A stretch of DNA of 64,000 nucleotides from Gracilibacteraceae bacterium (GTDB lineage: Bacteria; Bacillota; Desulfitobacteriia; Desulfitobacteriales; Syntrophobotulaceae): NCBI GenBank assembly GCA_031266805.1, contig JAISAH010000084.1:4952-68951 (forward strand), given 5' to 3'. Of this stretch, positions 26,208 through 42,830 are shown piece by piece. The notes under the pieces are model-generated. The model saw only the letters and a list, made by a program, of their open reading frames with translations. It ran no database searches and was not told the origin of the DNA. Position 1 is the first letter of the stretch, and each line of letters starts with the position of its first letter. The position numbers and the translations under genes are program-made.

Positions 26208-26735
26208 ATGAATAAACCTGAACACTCACATGAGCATAATCATGAACACTCGCATGAGCATAATCATGGACATTCGCATGAGTGCGGTCATAATCACGAA
26301 CACCCGCATGAGCATAATCATGGGCAGTGCGGTCGCACCCACGCAAGTGTTTATTCTCACGGCCATGGGCATGAACACTCGCACGAACACAGTCATGAGC
26401 ATGAGCATTTTCATGAGCATGACGGCGAACAGCACGCTCACGGGCATAGCCACGCGCACGGGCATGATCACACACACAGCCATGCGCACGACCACGATCA
26501 CGAGCACAAACATGAGGCTGAATCCGAGGAAATAACGCGGATCCGGGCTATGATGAAATATTTGCTGGTCCACAACCAAGAACATGCCGCCGAACTGACG
26601 GATATGGCGAGCGTTTTGCGCGGCGCCGGGCATACGGCGGCGGCGGCCAAACTGACTGACGGCGCCGAGGGACTGAGGCGCGGCAGCGGCGCGCTGGCGG
26701 AGGCGCTGGCGTTACTGGGAGGGGGAGAAGGCTGA
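26208..26735 (+). CDS. Histidine-rich metal-binding protein (CooJ/Hpn-like by composition)
   Basis: About 100 N-terminal residues are almost entirely H-x-H repeats (HSHEHNHEHSHEHNHGHSHECGHNHEHPHEHNH...). A helical C-terminal domain of about 70 aa follows. The DNA is a degenerate tandem repeat of about 24 nt. The stop overlaps the cooT ATG. Confidence 0.8.
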   Translation: MNKPEHSHEHNHEHSHEHNHGHSHECGHNHEHPHEHNHGQCGRTHASVYSHGHGHEHSHEHSHEHEHFHEHDGEQHAHGHSHAHGHDHTHSHAHDHDHEHKHEAESEEITRIRAMMKYLLVHNQEHAAELTDMASVLRGAGHTAAAAKLTDGAEGLRRGSGALAEALALLGGGEG

Positions 26736-26929
26736 TGTGTTTGTCGGCGGTGTATACGACCGAGACGGACGGACAGCGCAATTTGGTGTGCGAGAGCGTC
26801 AGCGAGGTAGACGTAAAAGGGGATACGGTCGTTTTGACCGATATACTCGGCCGGGACGTCACGGTGCGCGGCGTCATCACCAAAATCGACCTTATCAGGA
26901 ATAACATTTTAATAGGAAAACCGGTCTGA
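26735..26929 (+). CDS. cooT: CooT-family nickel-binding protein
   Basis: 64 aa beginning Met-Cys (MCLSAVY...), with the pattern ...V.EV.V.GD.V.L.D.LG....V.G.I..IDL..N.I.I shared with Rhodospirillum CooT. Confidence 0.72.
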   Translation: MCLSAVYTTETDGQRNLVCESVSEVDVKGDTVVLTDILGRDVTVRGVITKIDLIRNNILIGKPV

Positions 26930-26938
26930 TAAAGACGT

Positions 26939-28897
26939 ATGAACCAGCCTGTCCGCACGAAGGAAGAGTGGGCGCGCCTGCATAGCCGGCCTGAGCGCTG
27001 GGGGATGTTGGGCGAAACGGTTCGGGCGGCCTGGGAGCGCAGCGCCGGTTACAATATAGATTTTATGAACGCGCTGCCGAAGAAATTGCCGGCGGCGAAT
27101 TATGAGCAGATCAAACGTCAGACCAAGCGGCTTTTTGTTTATGCCAACAGTGTTTTGGAGCCGTTGGCTCGAAGCGATTTGCTGGAAAATGTTGGCATCA
27201 TCCTGTTTGCTAATAACGGCGCCTTGTTGCGCCTGTACGGCGGCGAGCGTTTTTTGACTTGGGCGGCGGCCAGCCGGATTGAAGCGCGAACCAAGTGGGC
27301 GGAAGATCAGATCGGCGCGAATGTTTTTTCCGTCGGGATGCGTCAAGGCGCTTGCTTGCAGATGTCGGGCTTTGAGCATTACGCCGCTTTTCTCACCGGG
27401 GCCGCCTTTGTGTTCGCCCCGATGCGGCTGAACAACGGCGACATTATGTGCAGCATCGTATTGGCCGCGCCGGTAAAATACGCGAGCGAACTGTCGCCGG
27501 CTCTGGCGGTCTCTATCGTGCGCGGCATAGAACTGCAGCTGTTTTGGTTCACTCAGGTCGATAACACCGCCGACGCTGCCGAGGGTGTCGGCAACATTTC
27601 CCTGGATCAGTCCATCGGCGGCAACCGCATCCTGACTCTTAGCGAGGAAGTGAAAAAGATGCTGTCGCTGCCGCGGCGGGACTATTTTTACGAGGCGCTG
27701 GACGACGTCATCGAGCGAAGGCCGGAAAATAAACAGTTTTGGGATATCATCAACAACCGCGTGCGCGTGAATGAAAAAGCGGTCCAGCTGCTGCAGGGCG
27801 GCAAAAACGTTTTTTTCTATATGAGTACGGCGCCCTATAACGAAGAAGGGTTCCACATCAAGGGCATAAGCGTTTCCATGAATTCGCTCAAACATGTCGC
27901 CAAATTGGTGACGAGAGTCCACGGCGACGCCGCCAGCTACAGTTTTGACGACGTGGTGCATGAGTGCGAGGCGATGGCGGACGTGATCCGCAGCGCTAAA
28001 ATGGCGGCGGCCACGGACAGCAGCATCTTGCTGATGGGAGAAAGCGGAGTGGGAAAGGATGTCCTGGCCCAGGCCATCCACCGGGGCAGCAGGCGCGCCG
28101 CCAGACCGTTTGTGGCCATCAATTGCGCCTCGTTTTCCAAGGATCTGATCGCCAGCGAATTATTCGGCTACGAGCCGGGCGCTTTTACCGGCGCCCGCAA
28201 GGAAGGCAGTATCGGCAAATTTGAGCTGGCTAACACCGGCACGCTGTTTTTGGATGAAATCGGCGATATGCCGCTGGATTTGCAGGCGCTGCTGCTGCGG
28301 ATCCTGGAGGAGCGCAGTTTTCGCCGCGTGGGCGGCAATAATCTCATAGCGACCGATGTGCGCGTTATCACCGCGACCAATAAGAAGCTATGGGAATCCA
28401 TTGAAACCGGCATGTTTCGGGAGGATCTTTTTTACCGCCTGGGCGTCGCGCGCATTCAGATACCTCCTTTGCGCAGCAGAAACTCGGATATCGTCCTGCT
28501 GATCAATCACGCTTTGACCCGCATCTGCGCCCGGCTTGACAAACCGGCGGTCAGCATGGGGGAGGACGCGATCGCTTTTTGTAAGCGTTATACGTGGCCG
28601 GGCAATGTGCGGGAGCTGTTTAATCTTTTGGAAGGCATTATCAGCACCTCCGCCTCGGCGGTCATCAGCGAAGCGGAAATCAGGCGATACCTCGGCGCCG
28701 GTGATTTTGCGGCCGCCGCGCCGCCGCGCTCTTTCCCGCCGGAACGGGAAGATGAGGCGCCCACGCTCTATGACGAGAGACGGGATTTCGCTCAGATGCT
28801 GAAATTATGCCGCAATAATAAGACAAAGGCGGCGCGGAATTTGGGAGTGCCGCTCAGGACGTTTTACCGTAAACTGAAACGATACGGCATGATGTAG
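26939..28897 (+). CDS. Sigma-54-dependent enhancer-binding protein with AcoR/GAF-like sensor domain
   Basis: AAA+ core GESGVGKDVLAQAIH, GAFTGA motif (ELFGYEPGAFTGA), FLDEIGDMPLDLQALLLRILEE. C-terminal Fis-type HTH (NKTKAARNLGVPLRTFYRKLKRYG). No receiver domain. Confidence 0.92.
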   Translation: MNQPVRTKEEWARLHSRPERWGMLGETVRAAWERSAGYNIDFMNALPKKLPAANYEQIKRQTKRLFVYANSVLEPLARSDLLENVGIILFANNGALLRLYGGERFLTWAAASRIEARTKWAEDQIGANVFSVGMRQGACLQMSGFEHYAAFLTGAAFVFAPMRLNNGDIMCSIVLAAPVKYASELSPALAVSIVRGIELQLFWFTQVDNTADAAEGVGNISLDQSIGGNRILTLSEEVKKMLSLPRRDYFYEALDDVIERRPENKQFWDIINNRVRVNEKAVQLLQGGKNVFFYMSTAPYNEEGFHIKGISVSMNSLKHVAKLVTRVHGDAASYSFDDVVHECEAMADVIRSAKMAAATDSSILLMGESGVGKDVLAQAIHRGSRRAARPFVAINCASFSKDLIASELFGYEPGAFTGARKEGSIGKFELANTGTLFLDEIGDMPLDLQALLLRILEERSFRRVGGNNLIATDVRVITATNKKLWESIETGMFREDLFYRLGVARIQIPPLRSRNSDIVLLINHALTRICARLDKPAVSMGEDAIAFCKRYTWPGNVRELFNLLEGIISTSASAVISEAEIRRYLGAGDFAAAAPPRSFPPEREDEAPTLYDERRDFAQMLKLCRNNKTKAARNLGVPLRTFYRKLKRYGMM

Positions 28898-29125: not shown

Positions 29126-29141
29126 TGGCATGAGAATTGCA
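29126..29141 (+). promoter_or_regulatory. Sigma-54 (-24/-12) promoter
   Basis: TGGCAT-GAGAA-TTGCA matches the TGGCAC-N5-TTGCA consensus. It is 85 nt before the first operon gene and directly downstream of an EBP gene. Confidence 0.72.
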
Positions 29142-29225: not shown

Positions 29226-30017
29226 ATGATCACAGTGGGAATCGACAGCGGCAGTCAAAATATAAAAGCGGTGGCGCTGCAGGACGGCGCGGTCGTCGCC
29301 AGAGCCAAGATCCTGGCGGAATTTGACGCGGTGAAAGCGGCGGAAGCGGTTTACGAACTGGTCTTGCGGCAGGCGGGCCTGACTGAGAGCGATGTGGAGG
29401 CGGTGGCGGCGACCGGAGCGGGACGCGCCCTTGTGCCGTTTGCCGTTTTATGTATCAACGAAGTCAGTTCCGCCTCCAAAGGGGCGCGCATGGTCAGGCC
29501 CGGCGCGGAGGTGGTGATCGACCTTGGGGCGGAGAGCAGCCGCGCCATCCGCCTCCAGCCGGACGGCAAGGTCAAAAAATACGAGATCAACGATAAATGC
29601 GCTTCCGGCGCCGGGACGTTCATCGAAACGATGGCCCGCGCCCTGCAGATGGAAATCGAGGACATGGGGCCTTATTCGCTCCGGCATACGCGGGAAGTGC
29701 CCATGAACGCTCAATGCGTCGTTTTCGCGGAATCGGAAGTCGTCTCGCTGATCCATCAGCAAGAGTCCAAGGAAAATATCGCCTACGCCATCCATATGGG
29801 CATCGCCAACCGGGTCGGCGCGCTGTTCCGCCGTCTGGGACTCTCTGACGAACTGGTCCTGATCGGCGGCCCGGCCCTCAATGTGGGTCTGGTCGAATGT
29901 ATGGGCAAGGAATCGGGCCGGAAAATATTCGTGCCCGAGTATCCGGATTTTATCAGCGCTATGGCCGCGGCCGCGGCGGCGGCCGAAAACGCGCGGGGAG
30001 GTGTCGCCGGTGGCTGA
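29226..30017 (+). CDS. BcrAD/BadFG/HgdC-family ATPase (electron-activating component), subunit 1
   Basis: 263 aa: MITVGIDSGSQNIKAV...NDKCASGAGTFIE.... ASKHA fold with cluster-bridging Cys context. Confidence 0.87.
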   Translation: MITVGIDSGSQNIKAVALQDGAVVARAKILAEFDAVKAAEAVYELVLRQAGLTESDVEAVAATGAGRALVPFAVLCINEVSSASKGARMVRPGAEVVIDLGAESSRAIRLQPDGKVKKYEINDKCASGAGTFIETMARALQMEIEDMGPYSLRHTREVPMNAQCVVFAESEVVSLIHQQESKENIAYAIHMGIANRVGALFRRLGLSDELVLIGGPALNVGLVECMGKESGRKIFVPEYPDFISAMAAAAAAAENARGGVAGG

Positions 30018-30921
30018 CGGGCATATCGAGAAAGTAGAATATTGGCGCTGGGAGGAATCTCGGTGGAAAAATCCGGAAATCCCGGACTGGCGCGGCTCTT
30101 TGGTGACGGCGGGCGTAGATATAGGTTCCACCAGCACTCAGGCCGCGATCATGACGGACGGCCAGCTTTACGCTTACGCCAGCATCCGGACGGGTTCCAA
30201 TAGCCCCTCGTCCGCCGTGGACGCCATGAACTGGGCGCTGGAGGGCACGGAGCTGACGCCGGCAGATTTGCACTATACGGTGGGCACGGGCTACGGACGG
30301 GTCAACGTGCCTTTTGCCGACAGCACCGTGACCGAGATCACCTGCCACGCCAAAGGGGCCAACTATATCTACGGGCCGACGGTGCGGACGCTGCTGGATA
30401 TGGGCGGGCAGGACTGCAAGGCCATCCACTGTGACGAAAACGGCGCCGTTACCTCGTTCATGATGAATGACAAATGTGCCGCCGGCACCGGGCGCGGCAT
30501 GGAGGTCATCGCCAATCTGCTGGCCGTCCACGTGGAGGATATCGGGGAGATGTCTTTCCGCATCGACGCCGAGCCGCCGCCGGTGTCCAGCATCTGCGTG
30601 ATTTTCGCCAAAACGGAGGCCACCAACCTGATGCGTTCGGGCTGGTCCAAGGAAAAAGTGCTGGCCGCTTACTGTCACGCGATGGCGCTGCGCGTCGCGC
30701 GTCTGCTGGAGAGAAACGAAATGCAGCTGGATTTTGCCATCACCGGCGGCATCGCCAAAAACAGCGGCGTGGTGAAGCGCATCGAGCGGCTGATCGGCGC
30801 GGAGGCGCTGCGGACCGATTACGACGCGCAGATTGCCGGCGCTCTGGGCGCGGCGCTGATGGGGAAAGCGCTGCACGAAAAAAAGGGCGGTAAGTCCGGG
30901 CGACGAAGGGAGGGCGGCTGA
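30010..30921 (+). CDS. BcrAD/BadFG/HgdC-family ATPase, subunit 2 (distinct paralog with an N-terminal extension of about 35 aa)
   Basis: ...LVTAGVDIGSTSTQAAI...NDKCAAGTGRGMEV...ITGGIAKN. The GTG at 30010 follows GGAGG and overlaps the upstream stop. The exact start is uncertain; 30001 is an alternative. Confidence 0.8.
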   Translation: MADGHIEKVEYWRWEESRWKNPEIPDWRGSLVTAGVDIGSTSTQAAIMTDGQLYAYASIRTGSNSPSSAVDAMNWALEGTELTPADLHYTVGTGYGRVNVPFADSTVTEITCHAKGANYIYGPTVRTLLDMGGQDCKAIHCDENGAVTSFMMNDKCAAGTGRGMEVIANLLAVHVEDIGEMSFRIDAEPPPVSSICVIFAKTEATNLMRSGWSKEKVLAAYCHAMALRVARLLERNEMQLDFAITGGIAKNSGVVKRIERLIGAEALRTDYDAQIAGALGAALMGKALHEKKGGKSGRRREGG

Positions 30922-30923
30922 AG

Positions 30924-31208
30924 ATGATCGCCAATTACGGCTGCGAAGACGGTTCCGGAGTATATTATATCCGGATCGACACGGGAAAATGCGGGGATTG
31001 CCAGCTCCGCGGCTGCGTGGGCGGATGTCCGCGGGAGCTGTTTGTGATAGAGGAGGATGATTGGGGCGACGAGATGGCCGTCGTGCGGGAAGACAGGCGC
31101 CGGACCCTGCAAGCCGCCTGCGCGGCCTGCAAACCCCAGGATCGCCCGCCGGACCCTTTGCCTTGCCAGAGCGCCTGCGGCAGACAGGCGATCGAACACA
31201 GCTGGTAA
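30924..31208 (+). CDS. Small ferredoxin-like Cys-rich protein
   Basis: 94 aa with C-x2-C-x4-C-x3-CP, then CAAC-x11-C-x3-C. Plausibly a 2x[4Fe-4S]-type protein with non-canonical spacing. Confidence 0.55.
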   Translation: MIANYGCEDGSGVYYIRIDTGKCGDCQLRGCVGGCPRELFVIEEDDWGDEMAVVREDRRRTLQAACAACKPQDRPPDPLPCQSACGRQAIEHSW

Positions 31209-31269
31209 ATAGTGGATATCTAAATACTCAGTGAGTTTTAGAGACATCCCAAGTGAGGAGGATATCAAA

Positions 31270-32058
31270 ATGGACATGAAGACGGAGTACCGGAGCATCA
31301 AGTATGAGACGGCTGACCGCGTCGCCACGGTCACTATGTGCGTTCCGGAAAAGATGAACGCTCTGGACGCGAGACTGGGGGAAGAACTGGCGTCGGCGCT
31401 GGCGCGGGCCAAAGCGGACGCCGCGGTCAAAGTCGTCGTGCTGACTGGGATGGGGAACGCTTTTTGCGCCGGCGGCGACTTGACGGGTTTTCCGGCGCTG
31501 GATCTCCAGACCGCCGCCGAAGGCATCCGTGATTCGGCCCGGTCGCTGGTCGGCGCTTTTACCAAATTGCCGAAACCGATCATCGCCGCGGTCAACGGTT
31601 TTGCCGTGGGGGCGGGATTGTCTCTGGCCCTGATCAGTGACATCGTGCTGGCTTCGGACAAGGCTGTGTTCGGCGCCGCTTTTGTCAATGTGGGCCTGAT
31701 CCCGGACATCGGCTCGCTCTTTTATCTGCCGCGGCTGATCGGGCTGCCCAGAGCGAAAGAACTGGCTTTTACCGGGCGCAATCTCAGCGCGCAGGAAGCT
31801 CTGACGATGGGCATCGTCAACCGGGTGACGGAAAACGACGCGCTGGCGGCGGAGGCGGCGAAACTGGCCGGGAAACTGGCGAGGCAGCCGGCCCTGGCGA
31901 TGGCGCAGGCCAAAGCGCTGCTCCACGCCAGTCTGGAGATCGGCGTCGACGAACTCATCGAGCTGGAGGGCATGGCCCAGGGGATCTGTATGCAGTCGGA
32001 AGATTCCCGTGAAGGCGTCGACGCGTTTTTGCACAAAAGGAAACCAAATTTTAAATAA
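31270..32058 (+). CDS. Enoyl-CoA hydratase/isomerase (crotonase) family protein
   Basis: ...VVVLTGMGNAFCAGGDL...PIIAAVNGFAVGAGLSLAL.SDI.... GAGGAGG lies 8 nt before the ATG at 31270. Confidence 0.88.
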   Translation: MDMKTEYRSIKYETADRVATVTMCVPEKMNALDARLGEELASALARAKADAAVKVVVLTGMGNAFCAGGDLTGFPALDLQTAAEGIRDSARSLVGAFTKLPKPIIAAVNGFAVGAGLSLALISDIVLASDKAVFGAAFVNVGLIPDIGSLFYLPRLIGLPRAKELAFTGRNLSAQEALTMGIVNRVTENDALAAEAAKLAGKLARQPALAMAQAKALLHASLEIGVDELIELEGMAQGICMQSEDSREGVDAFLHKRKPNFK

Positions 32059-32072
32059 CCGGGAGGGCACAA

Positions 32073-33212
32073 ATGAGTACGGAAACATTGTTTGAAAAAG
32101 CCGAACTGCGAAATTCCTCCGTGAAGGCCTGGAAAGAGCAGGGCAAAAAAATCATCGGCACGGTCTGCTGTCATGTGCCGGAGGAGATACTGCACGCCGC
32201 CGGCGCGATGCCTTATCGCCTGCGGGCCACGGGAGTCACGGATCTGAGCGAAGGCGACACATGGATGTCCACTTTTACCTGCAGCTACGCCCGCGGGACT
32301 CTGCAGTATCTGATCGACGGAACATTCGACTTCATGGACGGCGTGATTTCTTCGGACGGCTGCCTGATGGCCGGGCGTATTTTCGATAATTGGAAATATG
32401 TGGATGGCAACGCGGAGAAAAAGGAATTCTATTTGAAACAGATCGCGGCCCCGCGCATGAATAACGAAAACGCCGTCAGATATTACCGCGACTATCTGGA
32501 CCAGATGCGGACCGAACTGGGCGCTTATATGGGCGTGGAGATCACCGATGAGAAGATCCGGGCCTCCGTCGCCCTTTACAACGAGACCCGCCGGCTGATC
32601 CGCGCCCTGTACGATCTGAGCAAAAGCGACGCTCCCGTCGTCAGCGGGACCGAGCGCCTGAAACTCATCCTAGCCGCGTCCTCAATGCCCAAGGAAGAAT
32701 ACAATGAGATGCTGAAAGACTTTTTGGCAAGGGCCGGGAGCAGAGCCCCGATCAAGAACTATCGCGCCCGGATCATGCTCGTCGGCAGCGCGCTGGACGA
32801 CCCGGAGTATATCAAAGTCATCGAGGATAAGGGCGGTCTGGTGGTCACTGACGCCCTGTGTTTCGGCACCCGCTATCTCTGGGAGCCGGTCGAGCTGGAA
32901 GGCGGCGACGTCCTGACCTCCATTGCCGCTTCTTACCTGAAACGCCCCGTATGTCCGCGGATGGTGGATCTGCACGACGAGTTCGGGGATCTGATAGTTA
33001 ATTTTTGCCAGGATTTCAAAGTGGACGGCATCATCTACGAGCGCGTCAAATACTGTGAGATCTGGGGCGGCGAGGGTCTGTATTTCGGCGAGCACAAGGG
33101 CATGAAGGAAGCGGACGTCCCGCTGATCTTGCTGGAGCGCGAGGAGATCATGACCAATATCGGCCAGCTGGCCGTGCGCGCCGAAGCGTTTATCGAAATG
33201 ATCGAGAAATAA
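32073..33212 (+). CDS. HGD-D family subunit (BcrC/BzdN or HgdB/HadC-like)
   Basis: 379 aa: ...KIIGTVCCHVPEEILHAAGAMPYRL...; conserved Cys at VCCH, FTCSY, DGCLM and PVCPRM. Confidence 0.85.
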   Translation: MSTETLFEKAELRNSSVKAWKEQGKKIIGTVCCHVPEEILHAAGAMPYRLRATGVTDLSEGDTWMSTFTCSYARGTLQYLIDGTFDFMDGVISSDGCLMAGRIFDNWKYVDGNAEKKEFYLKQIAAPRMNNENAVRYYRDYLDQMRTELGAYMGVEITDEKIRASVALYNETRRLIRALYDLSKSDAPVVSGTERLKLILAASSMPKEEYNEMLKDFLARAGSRAPIKNYRARIMLVGSALDDPEYIKVIEDKGGLVVTDALCFGTRYLWEPVELEGGDVLTSIAASYLKRPVCPRMVDLHDEFGDLIVNFCQDFKVDGIIYERVKYCEIWGGEGLYFGEHKGMKEADVPLILLEREEIMTNIGQLAVRAEAFIEMIEK

Positions 33213-33236: not shown

Positions 33237-34490
33237 ATGAGCAATTTGATTGGGACTATTTCGCGTCAAGTTGACAGCGTCATCGAACACGCCAAGGAAA
33301 AATACGCGGATCAGATGTGGATGTTCGATGTGCAGAAAGCGTCCTGGGACGCCGTTTACCACGCCCATGACGAGGGCAAACGCCTGATCTATGTCGGCGC
33401 CTGCGCCCCGGTCGAACTGATTTACGCCTTTGACTGCGTGCCGTTCGTGCTGGACATGATCCCCACCCGTCTGGCCTCCACGCCGGAAGTAGCCGCCCGG
33501 TATATCGATCTGGCGGAGAAATATATCGCGCCGACGATGTGCGGCATCGATAAAGTGGATATCGGCGCCATCCTCTCCGGGGACATGCCGGACAAACCGG
33601 ACGCTTTTATCTATTCCACCGTTCCCTGCGACAACTCCCGCGTGGCCTACCCCTTCATCTGCGATCGGCTGGGATGTCCGTCCTATTGCATCGACGTCCC
33701 TTTCCGCAAAAACGAAATGGGTTTTGACTATATGGCCAGGCAGTATAAGGAAATCATCGTCTTCCTGGAAAAACTGACCGGCAAGAAGCTGGACTGGGAT
33801 AAGTTCCAGGAGATCATGACGATTTCCAACCAGACAAACGATCTGATGAACAAGATCGCCGACCTGCGCAGGATCACGCCCTGCCCGCTGCCGGGGCGCC
33901 TCTTGGTCCTGAATGAGATGATCCCGGGCATGGTGGGGCATCCGGCTATGCTTTCCTATCTGGAAGCGCAGTACGCCATCGGTCAGGACGCGGTCGCCAA
34001 AGGCCTGGGCGCGGTCAAAGAGGAAAAATACCGCGTATCCTGGCTGCAAAACATGCTGTGGTCCAACGTGGGCATCCTCGACTGGATGGAGCGGAAGTTC
34101 GGGGCGGTCCTGGTCATGGACGCCTTTGGCTATCAGCGCGGGCATGTTTTCCGGGATATAGACGATCTGGACACGATCTGCGTCGATTTTGCCAAAAAAG
34201 GGCTGGCCCTGCCCATGATCCATGGCGCCTCCGGCCCGGTCGAGGACTATATCGATCTGGTGGAAAACACGATGGGCGACTACAATGTCAGCGTATCCAT
34301 GTTCATCGGCCACGTGGGCTGCAAACACACCTGGGCCGCCGCCAAGATCATCACGGACATGATCCAGGAAAAATTCGGTCTGCCGACTTTATATCTGGAT
34401 GTGGACGCCGTGGACGGACGTTACAAGAAGACGGATGAGATCAGGGCCCTTATCACCGAATATATGGAAACAATAGAAGAAAATAAGTGA
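33237..34490 (+). CDS. HGD-D family subunit (BcrB/BzdO or HgdA/HadB-like)
   Basis: 417 aa: ...LIYVGACAPVELIYAFDCVPFVLD...TMCGIDK...VPCDNS.... Paralog of the previous gene. Confidence 0.85.
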   Translation: MSNLIGTISRQVDSVIEHAKEKYADQMWMFDVQKASWDAVYHAHDEGKRLIYVGACAPVELIYAFDCVPFVLDMIPTRLASTPEVAARYIDLAEKYIAPTMCGIDKVDIGAILSGDMPDKPDAFIYSTVPCDNSRVAYPFICDRLGCPSYCIDVPFRKNEMGFDYMARQYKEIIVFLEKLTGKKLDWDKFQEIMTISNQTNDLMNKIADLRRITPCPLPGRLLVLNEMIPGMVGHPAMLSYLEAQYAIGQDAVAKGLGAVKEEKYRVSWLQNMLWSNVGILDWMERKFGAVLVMDAFGYQRGHVFRDIDDLDTICVDFAKKGLALPMIHGASGPVEDYIDLVENTMGDYNVSVSMFIGHVGCKHTWAAAKIITDMIQEKFGLPTLYLDVDAVDGRYKKTDEIRALITEYMETIEENK

Positions 34491-34497
34491 GAGACGT

Positions 34498-35253
34498 ATG
34501 GACAGAGTAAGATCAATAGCGGTGACCGGTAAAGGCGGTACGGGAAAAACCGTGCTGGCGACTTTGCTGATCAGGCTGCTGGCGGAGCGTTTTCCGGGCC
34601 GGGTGCTGGCCATAGACGCCGATTCGGCCATGAGCCTGCCTTATACCTTGGGACTGGAGCTAAAGGGTACGGTGAGCGAGGTCCGGAAGAACATCATCGG
34701 TTCCCGCGAAGCCAAGGAAAAACTAAATGATGGCCCGACCAAGTCCGTGATGCGCGGTATACTCACCAGCGGCGGCGGGTTTGACCTGCTGGTCATGGGC
34801 CGGCCGGAGGAACCCGGTTGTTTCTGCGCCGTGAACGAATTGCTGCGCTATGGGATAGATACGCTGATCACGGACTACGAAGCGGTGGTGATCGACGGGG
34901 AAGCGGGACCGGAGCAGCTGAACCGGCGCGTTCTGAAAAGCATCGACGTCCTGCTGGTGGCGGCGGATATGTCGGCGCGCAGTCTGGAGACGGCGGCCGG
35001 CATCATCCGGGTGGCGAACAGCTATGAAGACGGTCTGCGCGTGGGGCGAGCCGGGCTGATCCTCAACCGGGTGAGGGGCGACCGGCCGGCGGAGGAGGTT
35101 TTGCGGCGGATCGGATTGGAAATTTTTGGAACTTTGCCGGAGGATGATCTGCTGAACGAGTATGACAGGGAAGGTCGCTCGCTCCTGGAACTGCCGCTGG
35201 ATTCGCCCTGTCCGCTGGCGGCGCGGGAGATACTCGACCGGATATATGAATGA
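34498..35253 (+). CDS. CooC/AcsF-type MinD-family metallochaperone ATPase with CxC motif
   Basis: Deviant Walker A GKGGTGKT, the CooC metal-binding CxC in GCFCAVNE, and EAGPEQL (CooC GAGIEHL equivalent). 251 aa. Confidence 0.8.
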   Translation: MDRVRSIAVTGKGGTGKTVLATLLIRLLAERFPGRVLAIDADSAMSLPYTLGLELKGTVSEVRKNIIGSREAKEKLNDGPTKSVMRGILTSGGGFDLLVMGRPEEPGCFCAVNELLRYGIDTLITDYEAVVIDGEAGPEQLNRRVLKSIDVLLVAADMSARSLETAAGIIRVANSYEDGLRVGRAGLILNRVRGDRPAEEVLRRIGLEIFGTLPEDDLLNEYDREGRSLLELPLDSPCPLAAREILDRIYE

Positions 35254-35267
35254 AGGAGGAATGTATT

Positions 35268-36572
35268 ATGCCGGATTGGAAAAAATTTGTTGAAGAGAGA
35301 ACTGTTTCTGTTGAGGAAGCGGCCGCCACAGTCGAGTCAGGCGATCGGATCTGGATGGGCAGCACGATCTGCGTGCCTTACGGCGTGCTGGACGCTCTGG
35401 CGGAGCGTTATGAAGAACTGAGGGACGTGCTTTTGATTGCCAGTATGTATCTGGCGCCGTTTAAGATTTTGAACGATCCCAAATACAAAAAAGCGTTTCA
35501 TACCATGAGCATCTTTCCCAACGTGCTGGAACGCGCGTCCGCCAAAATCGGCACCATTGATTTTCATTCCGTCCCGTACACCTATTGGGAACGCGCGGCG
35601 CAGGAAGTTTACAAAGTCAACTCCGTCATTACGGAAGTCTGTGAGCCGGACGAGGAGGGCTATGTTAATCTGAGCGCCCTGGGCGTAGGTTGGACCCCCA
35701 ATATCATGCGTAACGCCCCCAAACTTATCGCGGTCATAAACAAATACAATAAGCCGATCCGGGGCGACGCCGTCAAGGTCAAAGTTCCGGTCAGCCGCTT
35801 TCAGTACTTTGTCCGTCACGATCACCCGCTTCCTTCCCTGCCCACCAACCCGCCGGAGGAAATTGACGAGAAGATCGCTTCGTATATTTTACCGCATATT
35901 AATCAGGGAACCACGTTCCAGATCGGCATGGGCGGTTTGGGCGACAGTATCGGCCTGGGTTTGCGGGAAAAGAAGGGCTTGACCATTCGCACCGAGATCA
36001 TGACCAACTGCATGGTGGATTTGCTGGAAAGCGGCTCTGTGGATCATATCTACGCGGCGGGCGCGTTTGGCGATCAGCGTTTGTATGATATATTCGACGA
36101 TCCGCGAGTGACGTTCAGCGACTGCTGGGATCAGCTGGAGCCGGAATCCATCGGCAAAGTACCCAATTTTGTCTCGATCAACGCCACGATGATGACGGAT
36201 ATCATCGGCCAGTGCTGCTCCGAGGCGATCGGCGTCACTCAGTATTCCGCCATGGGCGGGCAGATCGACTTTGTGCGCGGCGCGGCTAAATCCAGAGGCG
36301 GCAAATCATTTATGTGTCTGCGCTCCACCCGGAAGGACAAGGAAGGCAAAGTCCATTCCAACATTGTGGCCAAACTTCCGGAAGGTTCCATTGTCAGCAC
36401 GCCGCGCTATGACGTCATGTATCTTGTCACTGAATACGGCGTCGCCGACGTATTCCTGCGCAGCAATAAAGAGCGGATCAAAGCCATCATCAGCATCGCG
36501 CATCCTGATTTTCGCGAAGAGCTCAAAGCCCAGGCCATCGCCCAAGGCAATATCTTCGCGGACGATTTTTGA
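35268..36572 (+). CDS. Family-I CoA-transferase (acetyl-CoA hydrolase/transferase, 4-hydroxybutyrate / butyryl-CoA:acetate type)
   Basis: ...INATMMTDIIGQCCSEAIGVTQYSAMGGQIDFVRGA.... GGAGGA lies 8 nt before the ATG at 35268. Confidence 0.82.
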   Translation: MPDWKKFVEERTVSVEEAAATVESGDRIWMGSTICVPYGVLDALAERYEELRDVLLIASMYLAPFKILNDPKYKKAFHTMSIFPNVLERASAKIGTIDFHSVPYTYWERAAQEVYKVNSVITEVCEPDEEGYVNLSALGVGWTPNIMRNAPKLIAVINKYNKPIRGDAVKVKVPVSRFQYFVRHDHPLPSLPTNPPEEIDEKIASYILPHINQGTTFQIGMGGLGDSIGLGLREKKGLTIRTEIMTNCMVDLLESGSVDHIYAAGAFGDQRLYDIFDDPRVTFSDCWDQLEPESIGKVPNFVSINATMMTDIIGQCCSEAIGVTQYSAMGGQIDFVRGAAKSRGGKSFMCLRSTRKDKEGKVHSNIVAKLPEGSIVSTPRYDVMYLVTEYGVADVFLRSNKERIKAIISIAHPDFREELKAQAIAQGNIFADDF

Positions 36573-36591: not shown

Positions 36592-37725
36592 ATGTACGAT
36601 TTGACACAGGAAGAGCAGCTCATCATCCAGAGCGTGCGCGAGTACGCGGAAAACGTCATGGCCCCGGCGGCCAAGGAAGCCGACGTCACGGGCGAGTTTC
36701 CCTGGGAGGTGATAAACAAGGGGATCGAGCTGGGGCTGCACGCCCTGTCGATCCCGGAGGAATACGGCGGCCCCGGTATGTCGGCCCTGATGTCGGCCGT
36801 CATATCCGAGGAATTATCCAAGGCCTGCGCCGGTATGGCCACGACGCTGGGGGCCACGGGGCTGTCCTGCTACCCGGTTTTGATCGCGGGTACGGACGAG
36901 CAGAAAAAACTTTATTTTGACATCATTCAGTCCGGAAAACTGGGCGCTTTTTGCCTGACCGAGCCCGGCGCCGGTTCCGACTCCGGCTCGGTGGCCGCGA
37001 CCGCCGTGCGCGAAGGCGGCGAGTATGTGCTGAACGGCAATAAGACATTTATTACCAACGGCGCCGTGGCCAGCGTTTACACGGTGTTTGCCACGGTGGA
37101 CCGCGCCAAGGGTTTGAAGGGACTGAGCGCTTTTATCGTGGAGCGTGACCGGGCCGGCGTCAGCGTGGGCAAAGAAGAAAACAAGATGGGCATCCGCGCC
37201 TCCAACACCACGGACGTGATTTTCACGAACGTGCGGATACCGGCGGGCCATCTTCTCGGCAAAGAAGGCGACGGATTCAAGATCGCCATGAAAACGCTGG
37301 ACTCCTCCCGCGCGGGCGTAGGGGCCCAAGCCGTGGGTATATGTCAGGCGGCGCTGGAAGCTTCCATCCGCTACGCGAACGAGCGCAAGCAGTTCGGCGC
37401 GCCTATCTCCGCCAACCAGGGCATCCAGTTCATGCTGGCGGATATGGCTATCCAGACGGAGGCGGCCAGAGCGCTGGTGCGTCACGCCTGCCGCCTGCAG
37501 GACGCCGGTCAGCCTTACGGCAAGGAAGCGGCCATGTGCAAGACCTTTGCCGGCGACACCGCCATGAAAGTGACGACCGACGCCGTGCAGATATTCGGCG
37601 GTTACGGCTACAGCCGCGATTACCCGATCGAAAAACTGATGCGCGACGCGAAGATCATGCAGATTTTTGAGGGCACCAATCAGATCCAGCGGGTCGTCGT
37701 CGCCGGCCATATACTGAGACCATAG
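36592..37725 (+). CDS. Acyl-CoA dehydrogenase (Bcd/AcdB-like)
   Basis: MYDLTQEEQLIIQSVREYAE...CLTEPGAGSD...ERKQFG...IFEGTNQIQR. The ORF-track N-terminus is read-through from the previous gene frame. Confidence 0.92.
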   Translation: MYDLTQEEQLIIQSVREYAENVMAPAAKEADVTGEFPWEVINKGIELGLHALSIPEEYGGPGMSALMSAVISEELSKACAGMATTLGATGLSCYPVLIAGTDEQKKLYFDIIQSGKLGAFCLTEPGAGSDSGSVAATAVREGGEYVLNGNKTFITNGAVASVYTVFATVDRAKGLKGLSAFIVERDRAGVSVGKEENKMGIRASNTTDVIFTNVRIPAGHLLGKEGDGFKIAMKTLDSSRAGVGAQAVGICQAALEASIRYANERKQFGAPISANQGIQFMLADMAIQTEAARALVRHACRLQDAGQPYGKEAAMCKTFAGDTAMKVTTDAVQIFGGYGYSRDYPIEKLMRDAKIMQIFEGTNQIQRVVVAGHILRP

Positions 37726-37805: not shown

Positions 37806-38573
37806 ATGAAGATCATTGTTTGTTATAAATGGACTTTGGACGAAGCGGATATTCGGGTCGACGCCGCCACGCGGGCGGTATTGAAAGAGCGGGCCAAGTA
37901 CCGGATCAGCCCCTATGACCGCAACGCCGTGGAATGCGGCGTGCGCCTCGCGGGAAAGAGCGGCGGCGAAGTCGTGGCCCTGAGCGTGGGTACAGCCGAA
38001 TTGGGAAATTCTGCCAAAGATATTCTCTCCCGCGGCGTCACGCGGCTGGCCTGGCTCGGCTGCCAGGAATTAGAAGACGCGGACGCGGCCGGCACGGCCC
38101 GTGCGTTAGCCGCCGCCGCGCGTAAAATCGGCGATTATGACCTTATTGTTTGCGGCGAGGGTTCCAGCGACAGCTATTCCCAGCAGACGGGCCCGCGCCT
38201 GGCGGAACTGCTGGATATTCCCGTCGTCACCTGCGCCAGTGAAATATCCCTGGACGGGAGCAGACTCACGGTGAAACGCAAACTGGAAGAAGGTTTTGAA
38301 ATAACGGAAACGACGCTCCCTGCTCTGATCACGGTGCTGCCGGATATCAACGAACCGCGCATCCCCGGGCTCAAAGAGATATTGGGGGCGAGCAAAAAAC
38401 CGGCGGAACGGTTTTCAGCGGAGGATCTGGGACTGGACCCGGAGACGCTCAAACCGCTGGCGCGCCGGGACAGCCTGCTGGGCACGGCGACGGACCGCCG
38501 CCGGATCGTGCTGAAAGGGGAGGGCGCGGCGGCGGAACTTTTAACTATTCTGAAACAGGAAGGTTTTTGCTGA
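37806..38573 (+). CDS. etfB: Electron transfer flavoprotein beta subunit
   Basis: MKIIVCYKWTLDEADIRV...ISPYDRNAVE...VCGEGSSDSYSQQTGP... Confidence 0.92.
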   Translation: MKIIVCYKWTLDEADIRVDAATRAVLKERAKYRISPYDRNAVECGVRLAGKSGGEVVALSVGTAELGNSAKDILSRGVTRLAWLGCQELEDADAAGTARALAAAARKIGDYDLIVCGEGSSDSYSQQTGPRLAELLDIPVVTCASEISLDGSRLTVKRKLEEGFEITETTLPALITVLPDINEPRIPGLKEILGASKKPAERFSAEDLGLDPETLKPLARRDSLLGTATDRRRIVLKGEGAAAELLTILKQEGFC

Positions 38574-38592: not shown

Positions 38593-39507
38593 ATGGCGGA
38601 TTTTTGGGTGATCGCGGACAAGCCGGGCGTCGCCTGTGAACTGCTGGCGTGCGCCAAGGAGCTGGTCCGGGGCGAAACGCTCGTATGCCTGACCGGTGAT
38701 CAGGAAACGGCGGCGGAAGCGGCCGCGTGCGGCGCGGATCGCGTCGCCTTGTTTGAGGGCGGGGCGCGGCCGGAATCATATGTGGCCGATTGGAGCGAGA
38801 AAGCGCGGCGGGAGCAGCCGGCGGCCATTTTGCTGGGGGCCGGCCGGCGGGACAAGGAGATCGCCGCCCGGCTGGCGGCGCGGCTGGAGGCCGGACTCAT
38901 TTCCGACTGCGTGAAACTGGAGCGCGGTCAGGGCGGTTTTTACTCTGAGCGCTATATGTACGGCGGTCTGTGTTTGGCCGGGGAAACGACCGCACGGACT
39001 CCCTTCATGGCGACGATGGCGGCGAGGGGGACCGAGCCTCTCCCGGCGGGCGCCGCGGCGCCGGTGGAAAAAACGGCGGCGGCGCGGGAGGATCCGGTCA
39101 AACTGGTGGAGCTGCAGCCTCATCAGAGCGCCTCGAATCTCATGTCCGCCAAAGTGATAGTCTGCGTGGGCCGCGGCCTCGCGCAAAAAGAAGATCTAAA
39201 GCTGGCTGAGGATCTGGCGCGGGCTCTGGGCGGCGAAGTGGGCTGCACCCGGCCTGTGGCGGAAGAGCGCCACTGGTTGCCGGAGGAAAGCTATATCGGC
39301 ATAACCGGGAAAAAACCGGCGCCGGACCTATATCTCACCTTGGGCGTTTCCGGCCAGATCCAACATTTGTCAGGCGTGCGCGACAGCAAGTTCATCGTGG
39401 CGGTGGAAAAAAACGAAACCGCGCCGATCGCGGAATCAGCCGACTACACGGTCGTCGGCGATCTGTACGACGTCGTGCCGCGGCTGCTGGCGGGACTCAA
39501 GGCGTGA
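38593..39507 (+). CDS. etfA: Electron transfer flavoprotein alpha subunit
   Basis: ...VIVCVGRGL...GCTRPV...ITGKKPAPDLYLTLGVSGQIQHLSG...IVAVEKNETAPI.... Confidence 0.92.
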   Translation: MADFWVIADKPGVACELLACAKELVRGETLVCLTGDQETAAEAAACGADRVALFEGGARPESYVADWSEKARREQPAAILLGAGRRDKEIAARLAARLEAGLISDCVKLERGQGGFYSERYMYGGLCLAGETTARTPFMATMAARGTEPLPAGAAAPVEKTAAAREDPVKLVELQPHQSASNLMSAKVIVCVGRGLAQKEDLKLAEDLARALGGEVGCTRPVAEERHWLPEESYIGITGKKPAPDLYLTLGVSGQIQHLSGVRDSKFIVAVEKNETAPIAESADYTVVGDLYDVVPRLLAGLKA

Positions 39508-39555
39508 AACGCCGCGCTTTGGCCTGACGGCGCGCCCGTGAAGGAGGAGACGAGT

Positions 39556-41136
39556 ATGTTTGCGCAGAATAAGGTTGTTGATCTGGGGCGGTTCCGAGCG
39601 ACCTGCTCCGGCAGGAGGGAAGCTGTTTGCGATTTTGACACCGGACGGCGCTACACATTTGCCGAGCTCGACCGGCGAGCGGACAGCATGGCCGCGTTTC
39701 TGACCGAGGTGACCGGTCTCCGCGCCGGCGACCGCGTGGCGTTTTGCTCGGAAAACAACGTGGCCTTCCTTGACGCTTTTTTGATGTCCTATAAAACCGG
39801 GATCATCATTACTTCTTACAACTGCATGATGGGGAAAAAAGAGCTGCTCAGCCTTGTCGCGCAGGAAACGCCCAAAGTGGTTTTTTATTCCGGCGACAGA
39901 CGCGGCGTCATGGAACCTTTCCGGACGGACGGGACGGAGAGGGAGTATGTGGCCATTCGCGGCGAGGCGGACGAGCGGGACCGGTATGCTTATGAAAACG
40001 TGATCAGCTACCGCCCCGCCCAGGCCGTTCATTATGAAACGCCGGAATATGAGGATATCCAAATGCTGATCCACACCGGCGGCACGACCGGCCGGCCCAA
40101 AGCGGCGATGATGAGTTATCGCGCCTTGCTGTGCAACGCCGTCAGTTCTATTCTGACGGTGGGCGTCAGCGAGCGCGACTGCCAGCTGCAGCTGCTGCCG
40201 TTTTTTCACACCGCCGGCTGGAATTCCCTGATGCTGCCGGTTTTTGTGGCCGGAGGCCGAACCGTCTACACCTCCGAATTTGAGGCGGGCAAGGTTTTGC
40301 GCGCCGTCGCCGCGGAACAGCCGACGGTCTGTATCGGGGTGGAGACCATGTACAAACGTTTGGCCGACCACGCGGATTTTCCGGCCGTCGATCTGTCGAG
40401 CTTTCGCTGGATGGTCAACGGAGCGGCGCCGATTTCCCGGCAGACGCTGGAAACCTATTGGCGGAAAAGGGTAAAACTGATCAACGCCTACGGAATGACG
40501 GAGATCGGACCGGAAAACCTGGTGCCGCCCGTGGACGCCATGACGTTGGAGGAAATACGGGACAAGTGGGAATCCGTGGGCAGGGCCATGCTGTTTAACC
40601 AGATGAAAATAATCGACGAAGAAGGGCGGGAAGCGCAAAGCGGCGAGCGGGGGGAGATGCTCTTCCGCGGCCCGCTGACTTTTTCCGGTTACTGGCGGAA
40701 CGAGGAACAGACCGGGAGCGTGGTGAAAAACGGCTGGATCCATACGGGAGATATAGCCTATTGTGACCCGGACGGGTTTTACTATATCTGCGGCCGCAAG
40801 AAAAATATGTTCATATCGGGGGGAGAGAACATTTATCCCGTGGAGATCGAATACGCCCTGGCCGGACATCCGGCGGTGGATTTCGCCTGTGTTATCGGGG
40901 TGGCGGACGAACAGTGGGGCGAGGTCGGCAAAGCCCTGATCGTCCTGAAACCGGGGGCGGCGGCGACAGAAAACGAGCTGCGGCGCCTGGTCAAAGAGGA
41001 ATGCACCAGCATCAAAGTTCCCAAATATATCCAATTTGTGGATAAAATCCCCCGCACTTCGGTCGGCAAATTAGACATGACAGAAATCCGCCGCCTCTAT
41101 GGATCATGTTCAGGGCGTCCCCCAGACGAATCTTAA
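39556..41136 (+). CDS. AMP-forming acyl-CoA ligase
   Basis: AMP-binding motifs IHTGGTTGRPKAAM, YGMTE, WIHTGDIAY, and PRTSVGKLD near the C-terminus. AGGAGG precedes the ATG at 39556. Confidence 0.88.
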   Translation: MFAQNKVVDLGRFRATCSGRREAVCDFDTGRRYTFAELDRRADSMAAFLTEVTGLRAGDRVAFCSENNVAFLDAFLMSYKTGIIITSYNCMMGKKELLSLVAQETPKVVFYSGDRRGVMEPFRTDGTEREYVAIRGEADERDRYAYENVISYRPAQAVHYETPEYEDIQMLIHTGGTTGRPKAAMMSYRALLCNAVSSILTVGVSERDCQLQLLPFFHTAGWNSLMLPVFVAGGRTVYTSEFEAGKVLRAVAAEQPTVCIGVETMYKRLADHADFPAVDLSSFRWMVNGAAPISRQTLETYWRKRVKLINAYGMTEIGPENLVPPVDAMTLEEIRDKWESVGRAMLFNQMKIIDEEGREAQSGERGEMLFRGPLTFSGYWRNEEQTGSVVKNGWIHTGDIAYCDPDGFYYICGRKKNMFISGGENIYPVEIEYALAGHPAVDFACVIGVADEQWGEVGKALIVLKPGAAATENELRRLVKEECTSIKVPKYIQFVDKIPRTSVGKLDMTEIRRLYGSCSGRPPDES

Positions 41137-41159: not shown

Positions 41160-42410
41160 ATGGCGCAAAACGGTAAAGGAATCTATTTCGGATGGTATAT
41201 TGTTCTGACTTGTTTTTTGCTGATGGCGCTGGCTTACGCGCCCAGTACGACGCTGGTCGGGCAGTTTCTGGTCCCGATGGCGACGGATTTTGATATAAGC
41301 GTAACCGTTTCCTCAACGATCGTGACGATCGGTATGCTGGCGGCGATGATCGCCTCGCCCATCGCCGGAAAACTGCTGACCAAATACGGCATACGCAAAC
41401 TCGTAGTGGCGATGCTGCTCATCAGCGCCGTCAGCAACGCCGGTATGTGTTTTGCCCCCAAATTTGTCTTGATCAACATTTTTGCCGCTTTCCGCGGCGT
41501 CGCTCTGGCTTTTGTCGGGATGGTGCCCATTTCCATGATGGTCATGACTTGGTTCGGCAAGAGCGCGCAGGGCCGCGCCATGGCCTTTGCCACTATCGGC
41601 AGCGGTATAGGGGCCATGGCGGTCAGCCCCCTTTTGGCGGTCATCATCGCGGATATCAGCTGGCGTTATGGCTATCTGCTGTTCGCCGTCCTCAGTTTGA
41701 TCTGCGTGCCGCTGGTTATGGCGACATTCGCCCCGTCTCCGGCGGCTAAGGGGTTGACCCGTCTGGGCGACGATCCCGGCGCTCAGGCGTCAGGCGCGCC
41801 GCTTACCGGCATGACCGGCGGCGAAGCCATGAAAAGCGGTATGTTCTGGATGGTGCTGCTCGGTTTCATTTTTGTCTCCGGCGTCTGCCAGACCTGGGTG
41901 AATAACGCGCCGGGTTTTTACAGCGGCAAACTGGGCCTCACGGCCATCATGGTTGGCACTCTGATCGCGGTCACGGCTCTGACCTTGACTTTGGGCAAGA
42001 TCGGGCTGGGCATATTCTGCGACAAATTCGGCGTCAAACTCGGTTTTCTGGTCAGCGTCGCCTGCCTGGGCGTCACCTATGCGCTGGGTATCGTGGGTGA
42101 GGTCGGCGTTGTCGTCAGCATGGGCGTTGTTTGCGCCGTCGTCATGGGTCTCGGCCAATCCAGCCTCAATATCACCATGCCGCTGGTGGTCAACCAGATC
42201 TGCGGCAATAAAGATTACGGCGTCTGTATGGGTTATGTGCAGGCCGGCACGGCCATCGGCGCCGGGTTTCTGCCCCTGGGGACCACGATCTTTCTCGATC
42301 AGACCGGCAATTACGCCACGACTTTCGTTATCGCCGGCGCGTTGGCGGTCGCGGCTATCGGCCTGATATTCGGCGCCTACGCGCTGCACGGAAAAAAAGT
42401 CACCATTTGA
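41160..42410 (+). CDS. MFS transporter
   Basis: 416 aa with about 12 predicted hydrophobic spans. Strong RBS (TAGGAGG). Confidence 0.85.
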   Translation: MAQNGKGIYFGWYIVLTCFLLMALAYAPSTTLVGQFLVPMATDFDISVTVSSTIVTIGMLAAMIASPIAGKLLTKYGIRKLVVAMLLISAVSNAGMCFAPKFVLINIFAAFRGVALAFVGMVPISMMVMTWFGKSAQGRAMAFATIGSGIGAMAVSPLLAVIIADISWRYGYLLFAVLSLICVPLVMATFAPSPAAKGLTRLGDDPGAQASGAPLTGMTGGEAMKSGMFWMVLLGFIFVSGVCQTWVNNAPGFYSGKLGLTAIMVGTLIAVTALTLTLGKIGLGIFCDKFGVKLGFLVSVACLGVTYALGIVGEVGVVVSMGVVCAVVMGLGQSSLNITMPLVVNQICGNKDYGVCMGYVQAGTAIGAGFLPLGTTIFLDQTGNYATTFVIAGALAVAAIGLIFGAYALHGKKVTI

Positions 42411-42437: not shown

Positions 42438-42830
42438 TCACGCCCGCAAAGCGCGCATAGCGTTAAGGACGGCGATAAAAGTTACGCCCACGTCCCCGAA
42501 AACGGCGGCCCACATGGAAGCGAGGCCGAGGGCGCCGAGGACGAGGATTACGGCTTTAACGCCGAGGGCGAAAACGATATTTTGCCGGGCGATGCGAACG
42601 GTTTGCCTGGCGATGCGGATGGCGTCCACGAGTTTGGAGGGCTTGTCCGTCTGCGCCGCCACATCGGCGGCGGGCGGCGCCGCCAGCTCCACCGTCAGGC
42701 GCTGCCCGGCAAAATCCAGGACGGCGCGCGAGACGCCGCTGATCTTCCCGGCTTCGCGCTCTATTTTTGCCGCGCAATTAGCGCAACAGAGACCGGCGAG
42801 CAGAAATTCCCTTTTTATTACAGCTTCCAT
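42438..42830 (-). pseudogene. Internally deleted heavy-metal P1B-type ATPase (cadA/zntA-like) remnant: HMA domain fused in frame to the last two TM helices
   Basis: N-terminus LAGLCCANCAAKIEREAGKISGV (HMA CxxC) joins after about 65 aa to ...SKLVDAIRIARQTVRIARQNIVFALGVKAVILVLGALGLASMWAAVFGDVGVTFIAVLNAMRAL (the extreme C-terminus of CadA-type pumps). The A, P and N domains and TM1-6 are absent. Confidence 0.7.

Follow-up and report, generated by a model that had tools for sequence, protein, structure and literature searches.

In the literature that we found, CooC, CooT and CooJ are described solely as accessory proteins of carbon monoxide dehydrogenase (CODH) (PMC13056359), and a CooC-type gene lodged in an operon for another enzyme raises the question of which client its product serves. 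Such a gene lies in a stretch of 64,000 nucleotides (nt; hereafter the window) from a Gracilibacteraceae bacterium (assembly GCA_031266805.1, contig JAISAH010000084.1, positions 4,952 to 68,951), the genome of which, 3.38 Mb and 95% complete, comes from a termite-gut metagenome. The gene directly follows two genes for subunits with HGD-D domains, as found in the superfamily of benzoyl-CoA reductase (BCR), 2-hydroxyacyl-CoA dehydratase (HAD) and double-cubane proteins. Our preferred reading, to which we give a probability of roughly 0.55, is that the ATPase acts as a dedicated CooC-type maturation factor that would deliver a metal, possibly nickel, to the BCR/HAD-family enzyme encoded upstream. 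Its branch of the family travels with the HGD-D enzyme, and the ATPase is therefore probably that enzyme's own metal-loading helper. We infer the delivery of metal, the identity of that metal and the client site from comparative genomics.

The ATPase is encoded by an uninterrupted open reading frame (ORF), and since databases hold more than 2,500 homologs of its product, the frame is real and not a chance one. Identity is 65-100% for the best 120 listed, whose length is about 253 residues; several homologs bear the JGI label 'CO dehydrogenase maturation factor'. Translation bore out the preliminary description of this DNA, in which a 251-residue protein with GKGGTGKT and a CxC in GCFCAVNE had been recognized. 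The gene and its motifs are as follows.

34498-35253, forward strand: CooC-family ATPase of 251 residues (ORF check, homologs and structure-database alignment)
34528-34551, forward strand: deviant Walker A GKGGTGKT, residues 11-18, with the signature Lys12 and the P-loop Lys17 (invariant in 30 orthologs)
34615-34626, forward strand: Switch I DADS, Asp40 and Asp42 invariant (ortholog alignment)
34819-34827, forward strand: CxC, Cys108-Phe-Cys110 in PGCFCAVNE, within the invariant block MGRPEEPGCFC (aligned to CooC1, 3kje)
34894-34908, forward strand: Switch II/Walker B DGEAG, invariant and without cysteine (ortholog alignment)

GKGGTGKT, DADS and DGEAG are all invariant among the 30 orthologs compared, and the CxC is kept by every one of the 80 family members examined. 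Specific to the clade is the invariant block MGRPEEPGCFC, and Cys238 is near-invariant. The spacer of 7 nt to the preceding HGD-D gene, which ends at 34490, was likewise confirmed. The stop codon had also been said to overlap the next ORF, and this holds for the longest version of that ORF only (ATG at 35250, ATGA at 35250-35253). An AGGAGG at 35254-35259 is placed 8 nt ahead of the in-frame ATG 35268 of this CoA-transferase ORF, which therefore more likely starts at 35268, with a spacer of 14 nt after the ATPase stop. Even with this start the two genes are tightly packed.

By sequence and motif, the protein is a CooC-family P-loop ATPase of the MinD/NifH class. A Pfam scan returned the generic CbiA domain only, and in the NCBIfam scan no model came near its cut-off (minD_bact, 24.5 bits versus 212.9; the BchX and BchL models, 23-31 bits versus 331-345). 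The best match among solved structures was CooC1 (3kje), both for the single sequence searched with HMMER (E=8e-17, 64.7 bits) and for a profile of 30 orthologs (E=1.9e-21). The runner-up, a ParA, reached E=6e-5 and 7e-11, respectively, at least ten orders of magnitude behind, and CooC1 alone among the solved structures gave an unbroken alignment. In both HMMER alignments Cys108-Phe-Cys110 falls on Cys112-Tyr-Cys114 of CooC1, so that the proposed identity of the CxC with the CooC metal-site motif withstood a proper alignment. In our trees, built without a MinD/ParA outgroup, the ATPase groups with CODH-linked CooCs. An AlphaFold2 (AF2) model (pLDDT 83.8, pTM 0.87) matched ParA, NifH, FleN and MinD chains of the PDB in Foldseek at a TM-score of about 0.7; because this fold is common to the whole class, the fold search was left out of the decision on family membership.

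CooC1 of Carboxydothermus hydrogenoformans (3kje, 3kjg, 3kjh and 3kji), the nickel-insertion ATPase of Ni,Fe-CODH, is of the same length class (254 residues versus 251) and has in common with the window protein the deviant Walker A, Switch I, Switch II and the position of the CxC. At the E-value given above it is nevertheless distant, and the window ATPase belongs to a separate clade with its own MGRPEEPGCFC block and a near-invariant Cys238. The AcsF/CooC paralogs of the acs (Wood-Ljungdahl) cluster are members of the same family. AcsF is a CooC paralog that acts with acetyl-CoA synthase (ACS), and CooC paralogs specialise on different client metalloclusters. The functional hallmark of the family, an association with CODH/ACS, is lacking in the window ATPase: its clade never adjoins CODH, the genes conserved beside it encode an HGD-D heterodimer, and carriers without CODH exist.

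The window ATPase is not the CODH helper of its genome. Three CooC-family genes are present in the host; the other two, 39% and 37% identical to the window ATPase and outside its clade, both flank the single CODH gene of the genome on contig C113, and the window ATPase lies on a different contig. Eleven further ortholog-bearing genomes were searched for CooC-family genes, and the matches were bimodal, with orthologs at 47-69% identity (E<=1e-69) and paralogs at no more than 41% (E>=1e-45), several of the paralogs adjoining CODH genes. Judged by PF03063 (CODH/HCP), no such gene is present in two genomes that carry an ATPase ortholog, G002, which is complete at 2.06 Mb, and G003.

The companion of the ATPase is the pair of HGD-D subunits encoded just before it.

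32073-33212, forward strand: BzdN-like HGD-D subunit (N-like), with six double-cubane [8Fe-9S] cysteines and an extra Cys33/His34
33237-34490, forward strand: BzdO/HadB-like HGD-D subunit (O-like), presumed catalytic, with three cysteines that match those of BzdO

Scanning one genome per prokaryotic species with patterns derived from the ATPase yielded 61 loci, hosted by Oscillospiraceae, Gracilibacteraceae, Anaerovoracaceae, Eubacteriaceae, Lachnospiraceae and Negativicutes (including Sporomusa silvacetica DSM 10669) and, beyond Bacillota, by Desulfovibrio, Syntrophobacter, Chloroflexota and Nitrospinota. Three extra gene contexts came from Desulfitobacterium dichloroeliminans, Eubacteriaceae ES3 and metagenomes. 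The orthologs are 46-95% identical to the window protein, the nearest relative (95%) being that of locus L011, from a Gracilibacteraceae metagenome-assembled genome. Upstream DNA of 1.4 kb or more is available for 51 loci, of which 49 have the O-like gene immediately 5' of the ATPase gene and the N-like gene before it, with a median gap of 90 nt between the O-like and ATPase genes. The position directly after the catalytic subunits, noted earlier for the window, recurs in related loci. The usual layout is completed by two BcrAD-type ATPase genes and a ferredoxin gene upstream and by the CoA-transferase gene downstream of the ATPase. The operon as a whole may be transferred horizontally, as its scattered occurrence among phyla suggests.

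In a maximum-likelihood tree, the orthologs form one clade (UFBoot/SH-aLRT 93/82), which is joined to a sister clade at 100/98, the CODH-linked CooCs, CooC1 included, remaining outside. Sister-clade ATPases, with the motif GRPEAAGCYC, occur in some of the same genomes beside a different HGD-D pair; their gene lies about 140-170 nt 5' of that pair in six of seven cases and 1.6 kb 3' of it in the seventh. Tree and synteny together place the window ATPase in a well-separated clade tied to HGD-D genes, a possibility that the preliminary description had raised. The most fitting description is a new branch of CooC which, like its sister branch, is devoted to BCR/HAD/double-cubane enzymes. The CooC-like family is small: of 1.84 billion cluster representatives searched, 147 match at E<=1e-30, and the ortholog clade amounts to a handful of these. 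Clustered at 50% identity, CooC proteins make up roughly 750 groups. Examples of the sister clade are found at G010:C20:77620-81081, G003:C1:390392-393853 and G007:C1:559950-563595, and at loci L084, L087-L091 and L093. Divergent CooC-like genes also lie within 1-3 kb of divergent HGD-D genes in G093 and G018 (about 200-213 bits) and in G028 (181 bits). In a closed 2.06-Mb Clostridia genome without a CODH/HCP gene, a second CooC-family gene (L053:4783-5535), 30% identical and on a long branch, directly precedes the BcrAD genes of the same operon.

The two genes also occur together. In the class to which the window belongs, an ATPase ortholog (at least 450 bits) is present in 4 of 112 genomes and the O-like gene (at least 660 bits) in the same 4; in an Oscillospiraceae-type family both are found in the same 3 of 201. 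Over the combined 313 genomes, 7 have both genes, none has only one and 306 have neither, a co-occurrence that is strong as a pattern and is not a formal probability because of the few independent gains. Three Oscillospiraceae-type genomes (G003, G158 and G278) encode 5-6 O-like paralogs with a single ATPase gene, and Oscillospiraceae-type loci (L004, L014, L016 and others) hold up to three N-like/O-like pairs together with one BcrAD ATPase pair and one CooC-like gene. This suggests that the pairs are interchangeable catalytic modules which share one electron-activating module and one helper.

What would such a helper serve? The upstream N-like/O-like enzyme is an uncharacterised ATP-driven Fe-S member of the BCR/HAD/double-cubane-protein superfamily. 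Its closest relatives are the class I benzoyl-CoA reductases BzdNOPQ and MbdONQP (8s02, 9g87) and HadBC (3o3m), with which it has in common two BcrAD-type ATPases, two HGD-D subunits, six [8Fe-9S] cysteines in the N-like and three [4Fe-4S] cysteines in the O-like subunit. No CooC-type gene was found for those systems in the literature searched, unlike the situation in the window. Aligned to BzdN, the N-like subunit keeps all six cysteines (BzdN Cys36/73/100/263/293/327) that bind the [8Fe-9S] double cubane (PMC11971306), and beside its first cluster ligand Cys32 it has an extra Cys33-His34 absent at the aligned positions of BzdN.

The O-like subunit departs further from its relatives. It is remote from BzdO (E=2e-10) and HadB, and it keeps the three [4Fe-4S] cysteines (Cys102/131/362, equivalent to BzdO Cys95/128/380), whereas the position of the catalytic BzdO His131 is occupied by Ser. 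Asp132, Cys216, His329 and His364 are invariant where BzdO has Cys, Ala, Gln and Gly, and a near-invariant His359 stands where BzdO has Asn. The extra Cys and His, namely Cys216 in PCP, His329 in PMIHG, and His359 and His364 in the series His359-x-x-Cys362-x-His364, are absent from BzdO and HadB at the aligned positions. Every O-like and N-like paralog of the loci has its extra cysteines and histidines, beyond the pair adjacent to the ATPase, and these residues may form an additional metal site or act as catalytic residues.

Further genes of a nickel type lie upstream of the operon and in the same direction, together with an activator gene.

26208-26735, forward strand: His-rich protein ending in a helical HNxxH domain (similar to CooJ in make-up, but without homology to it)
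26735-26929, forward strand: CooT, starting with Met-Cys (PF10133, 67.6 bits versus a cut-off of 27)
26939-28897, forward strand: sigma-54 enhancer-binding protein

CooT is a nickel accessory protein of CODH (PMC13056359). Besides the window, it is found in L011, L044, L053, L055, L056, L061 and L065, and the HNxxH protein in L011, L044 (without the His-rich tract), L055, L061 and L065. The pair of CooT and His-rich genes is upstream of the operon in the window and in L011; in L044, from Enterocloster, the cooT and HNxxH genes stand inside the operon, between the ATPase and acyl-CoA dehydrogenase genes. In 26 loci, mostly from Oscillospiraceae, the ATPase gene is directly followed, after no more than about 65 nt, by a gene of the CsoR/RcnR/InrS family (PF02583). 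Its product has a His-rich N-terminal extension of 30-70 residues, a conserved HVH(T)NKK motif, DRDC and QDHIxEC, with an x-C-H-C fingerprint, a make-up that matches the nickel sensor InrS. Nickel is the leading candidate for the metal of the ATPase.

Some details of these accessory genes may be added. The His-rich and cooT genes of the window overlap, the stop of the former sharing sequence with the ATG of the latter. The HNxxH/CooT pair occurs near the same operon in Gracilibacteraceae, Enterocloster and Lachnospiraceae/Eubacterium, its position relative to the operon varying (L011:733-1478, L044:4893-5294, L065:12338-12829). Examples of the InrS-like sensor are L004:9828-10250 and L014:10804-11205; the window has no sensor gene and has the sigma-54 activator instead. 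A prediction of the metal from the W-X-Y-Z fingerprint of the sensor was attempted and dropped, this fingerprint not being predictive (PMC4235346). A ZIP gene is present in L004-type loci, and in one Lachnospiraceae locus a gene for a family-5 solute-binding protein (SBP_bac_5) of the NikA/Opp/Dpp class (L061:17491-19176), which is not recurrent, lies 3 kb downstream of the InrS-like gene.

By analogy with CooC1, binding of ATP would close the ATPase homodimer via the signature Lys12 and bring together the CxC motifs of the two chains (Cys108 and Cys110 of each) in a four-thiolate interfacial metal site. CooT and the His-rich protein (26208-26929) would supply this site with its metal ion, most probably Ni(II). 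Hydrolysis of ATP on the apo-enzyme would then either pass the metal to a site in the N-like/O-like heterodimer or open that site. The best candidate for the receiving subunit would be the O-like one, with Cys216, His329, His359 and His364 beyond its three BzdO-type cluster cysteines. One may go further and suppose that the enzyme is the first nickel- or other heterometal-dependent member of its superfamily, in which the CooC clade, CooT and the CooJ-like protein build a Ni-Fe-S centre on these four residues while the InrS-like sensor links expression to nickel supply in many lineages; we regard this extension as tentative and rather doubtful.

Several points weigh against a dedicated metal-delivering maturase. 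The fold is generic and cannot separate CooC from ParA, NifH or MinD, and 3kje is absent from the top 50 fold matches. Active BzdNO, equipped with its [8Fe-9S] and [4Fe-4S] clusters, has been produced in Escherichia coli without a helper (PMC11971306); the known clusters of the superfamily therefore do not explain a need for a CooC-type protein, and the extra ligands of the O-like subunit are the obvious candidates for explaining it. From the Cys/His fingerprint of InrS/CsoR proteins the sensed metal cannot be predicted (PMC4235346), a Pfam scan of recurrent unknown neighbours gave no nickel importer common to several loci, and CooT and the His-rich protein accompany the operon in only about 8 of about 60 loci. 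Whether the enzyme occurs without the ATPase is judged from 313 genomes with few independent gains, and the loci themselves were gathered with ATPase-derived patterns. For the clade as a whole, a maturase role is a prediction from comparative genomics.

These points leave room for other functions, the most serious being that of an Fe-S carrier or an assembly or repair ATPase without any heterometal, the CxC thiolates of the dimer holding a bridging [4Fe-4S] or [2Fe-2S] cluster in the manner of Mrp, NBP35 and ApbC. In one variant it would deliver or fuse clusters for the double-cubane or active-site cluster, comparable to NifH in P-cluster maturation. We consider this function unlikely, even though the SIMIBI fold is that of NifH and Mrp, NifH chains dominate the fold matches, two cysteines per chain at a dimer interface could in principle hold a cluster, unusual Fe-S clusters abound in the client (PMC11971306), and synteny and co-occurrence fit equally well. 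The motif is the CxC of CooC and not the CxxC of Mrp/NBP35, no CxxC being present in the ATPase and PF10609 not being among its Pfam matches; the clusters of BzdNO and of the double-cubane cluster protein DCCP form in E. coli without such a factor, and the linkage to CooT, the His-rich protein and the InrS-like sensor would be left unexplained. The comparison with NifH extends to a further idea, namely that the protein works within the enzyme as a subunit or redox partner, in which case it would be a third ATPase, similar to NifH, with the task of gating electron transfer or of stabilising the complex. NifH is of the same fold class and is, as proposed for the window protein, an ATPase dimer with an interfacial metal site serving an eight-iron-cluster enzyme; it is among the top fold matches, the Pfam model Fer4_NifH gives a weak match to the ATPase (24.0 bits, below the cut-off of 25), and the gene stands between the catalytic subunits and the pathway genes on the same presumed transcript. 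NifH differs in holding a [4Fe-4S] cluster on two separated cysteines per chain, the second of these ligands lying in Switch II, whereas the window ATPase has a CxC and no cysteine in Switch II (DGEAGPEQLNRRV). The operon, moreover, already encodes two BcrAD-type ATPases and a ferredoxin, and the ratio of 5-6 O-like paralogs to a single ATPase copy is better explained by a trans-acting factor than by a stoichiometric subunit, which makes this idea improbable.

An ordinary CooC/AcsF of CODH/ACS merely located in an HGD-D operon would account for the family membership, the CxC motif and the presence of CODH in the genome. It is contradicted by the two CODH-flanking paralogs, the orthologs in genomes free of CODH/HCP genes, the separate clade and the O-like gene as immediate neighbour in 49 of 51 loci, and very little likelihood is left to it. 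A positioning or partition ATPase of the ParA/MinD type, the affiliation that the preliminary description had named as fatal to its view, has in its favour the generic CbiA/ParA fold and a ParA-family protein as the top Foldseek match. It is practically ruled out by NCBIfam scores of 37-40 bits against cut-offs of 180-213 (minD_arch, 39.6 versus 201.75; ParA_partition, 37.3 versus 180) and by profile alignments to ParA and MinD that are fragmentary and leave the CxC region uncovered. The gene is also chromosomal and part of a catabolic operon, and the annotation of the window gives no minC, minE or parB partner gene in its neighbourhood.

If the ATPase is the dedicated maturation factor that we favour, the consequences would reach beyond this operon. 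In a full-text search we found no paper linking CooC-type proteins to the benzoyl-CoA reductase/2-hydroxyacyl-CoA dehydratase/double-cubane family, and a CooC branch tied to another enzyme family, even in CODH-free genomes, would give this metal-insertion machinery at least one further client. Should that client be nickel-dependent, CooC, CooT and CooJ would constitute a general nickel-cluster assembly kit beyond CODH/ACS. The superfamily carries out some of the hardest reductions and dehydrations of anaerobic metabolism with Fe-S clusters only, and a member dependent on a metal chaperone would suggest a type of cluster that has not been described. In practice, heterologous expression of the N-like/O-like enzymes would probably fail without the ATPase gene. 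The carriers are termite-gut, rumen and gut bacteria and other metagenome-assembled anaerobes, with Desulfitobacterium dichloroeliminans (LMG P-21439), Sporomusa silvacetica and Clostridium sediminicola among the cultured ones.

The remaining features of the operon are consistent in direction with those already given.

29126-29141, forward strand: near-consensus sigma-54 -24/-12 promoter TGGCATGAGAATTGCA, 85 nt ahead of the operon and the sole match in the window
29226-30017, forward strand: BcrAD/BadFG-type ATPase 1 (domain scan)
30010-30921, forward strand: BcrAD/BadFG-type ATPase 2, probable start GTG 30010, preceded by GGGGAGG (domain scan)
30924-31208, forward strand: Cys-rich ferredoxin-like protein of 94 residues, conserved in synteny
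31231-32058, forward strand: enoyl-CoA hydratase
35268-36572, forward strand: family-I CoA-transferase (4-hydroxybutyrate/butyryl-CoA:acetate type)
36592-37725, forward strand: acyl-CoA dehydrogenase
37806-38573, forward strand: EtfB
38593-39507, forward strand: EtfA
39538-41136, forward strand: AMP-forming CoA ligase
41160-42410, forward strand: MFS transporter

No RNA support for co-transcription was obtained, the window sequence having turned up only in DNA runs of the termite-gut metagenome. For the second BcrAD-type ATPase, the GGGGAGG lies 6 nt before GTG 30010, and this start overlaps the stop of ATPase 1; the ATG at 29881 given in the ORF list is less likely, and relatives are about 300 residues long. 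Immediately past the end of the operon, a short ORF with a heavy-metal-associated (HMA) domain occupies 42438-42830 on the opposite strand. In other loci, genes for a NadB-like L-aspartate oxidase and for the quinolinate phosphoribosyltransferase NadC lie a few kb downstream of the operon, as at L036:8345-10772, L004:12178-14570 and about six other Oscillospiraceae-type loci.

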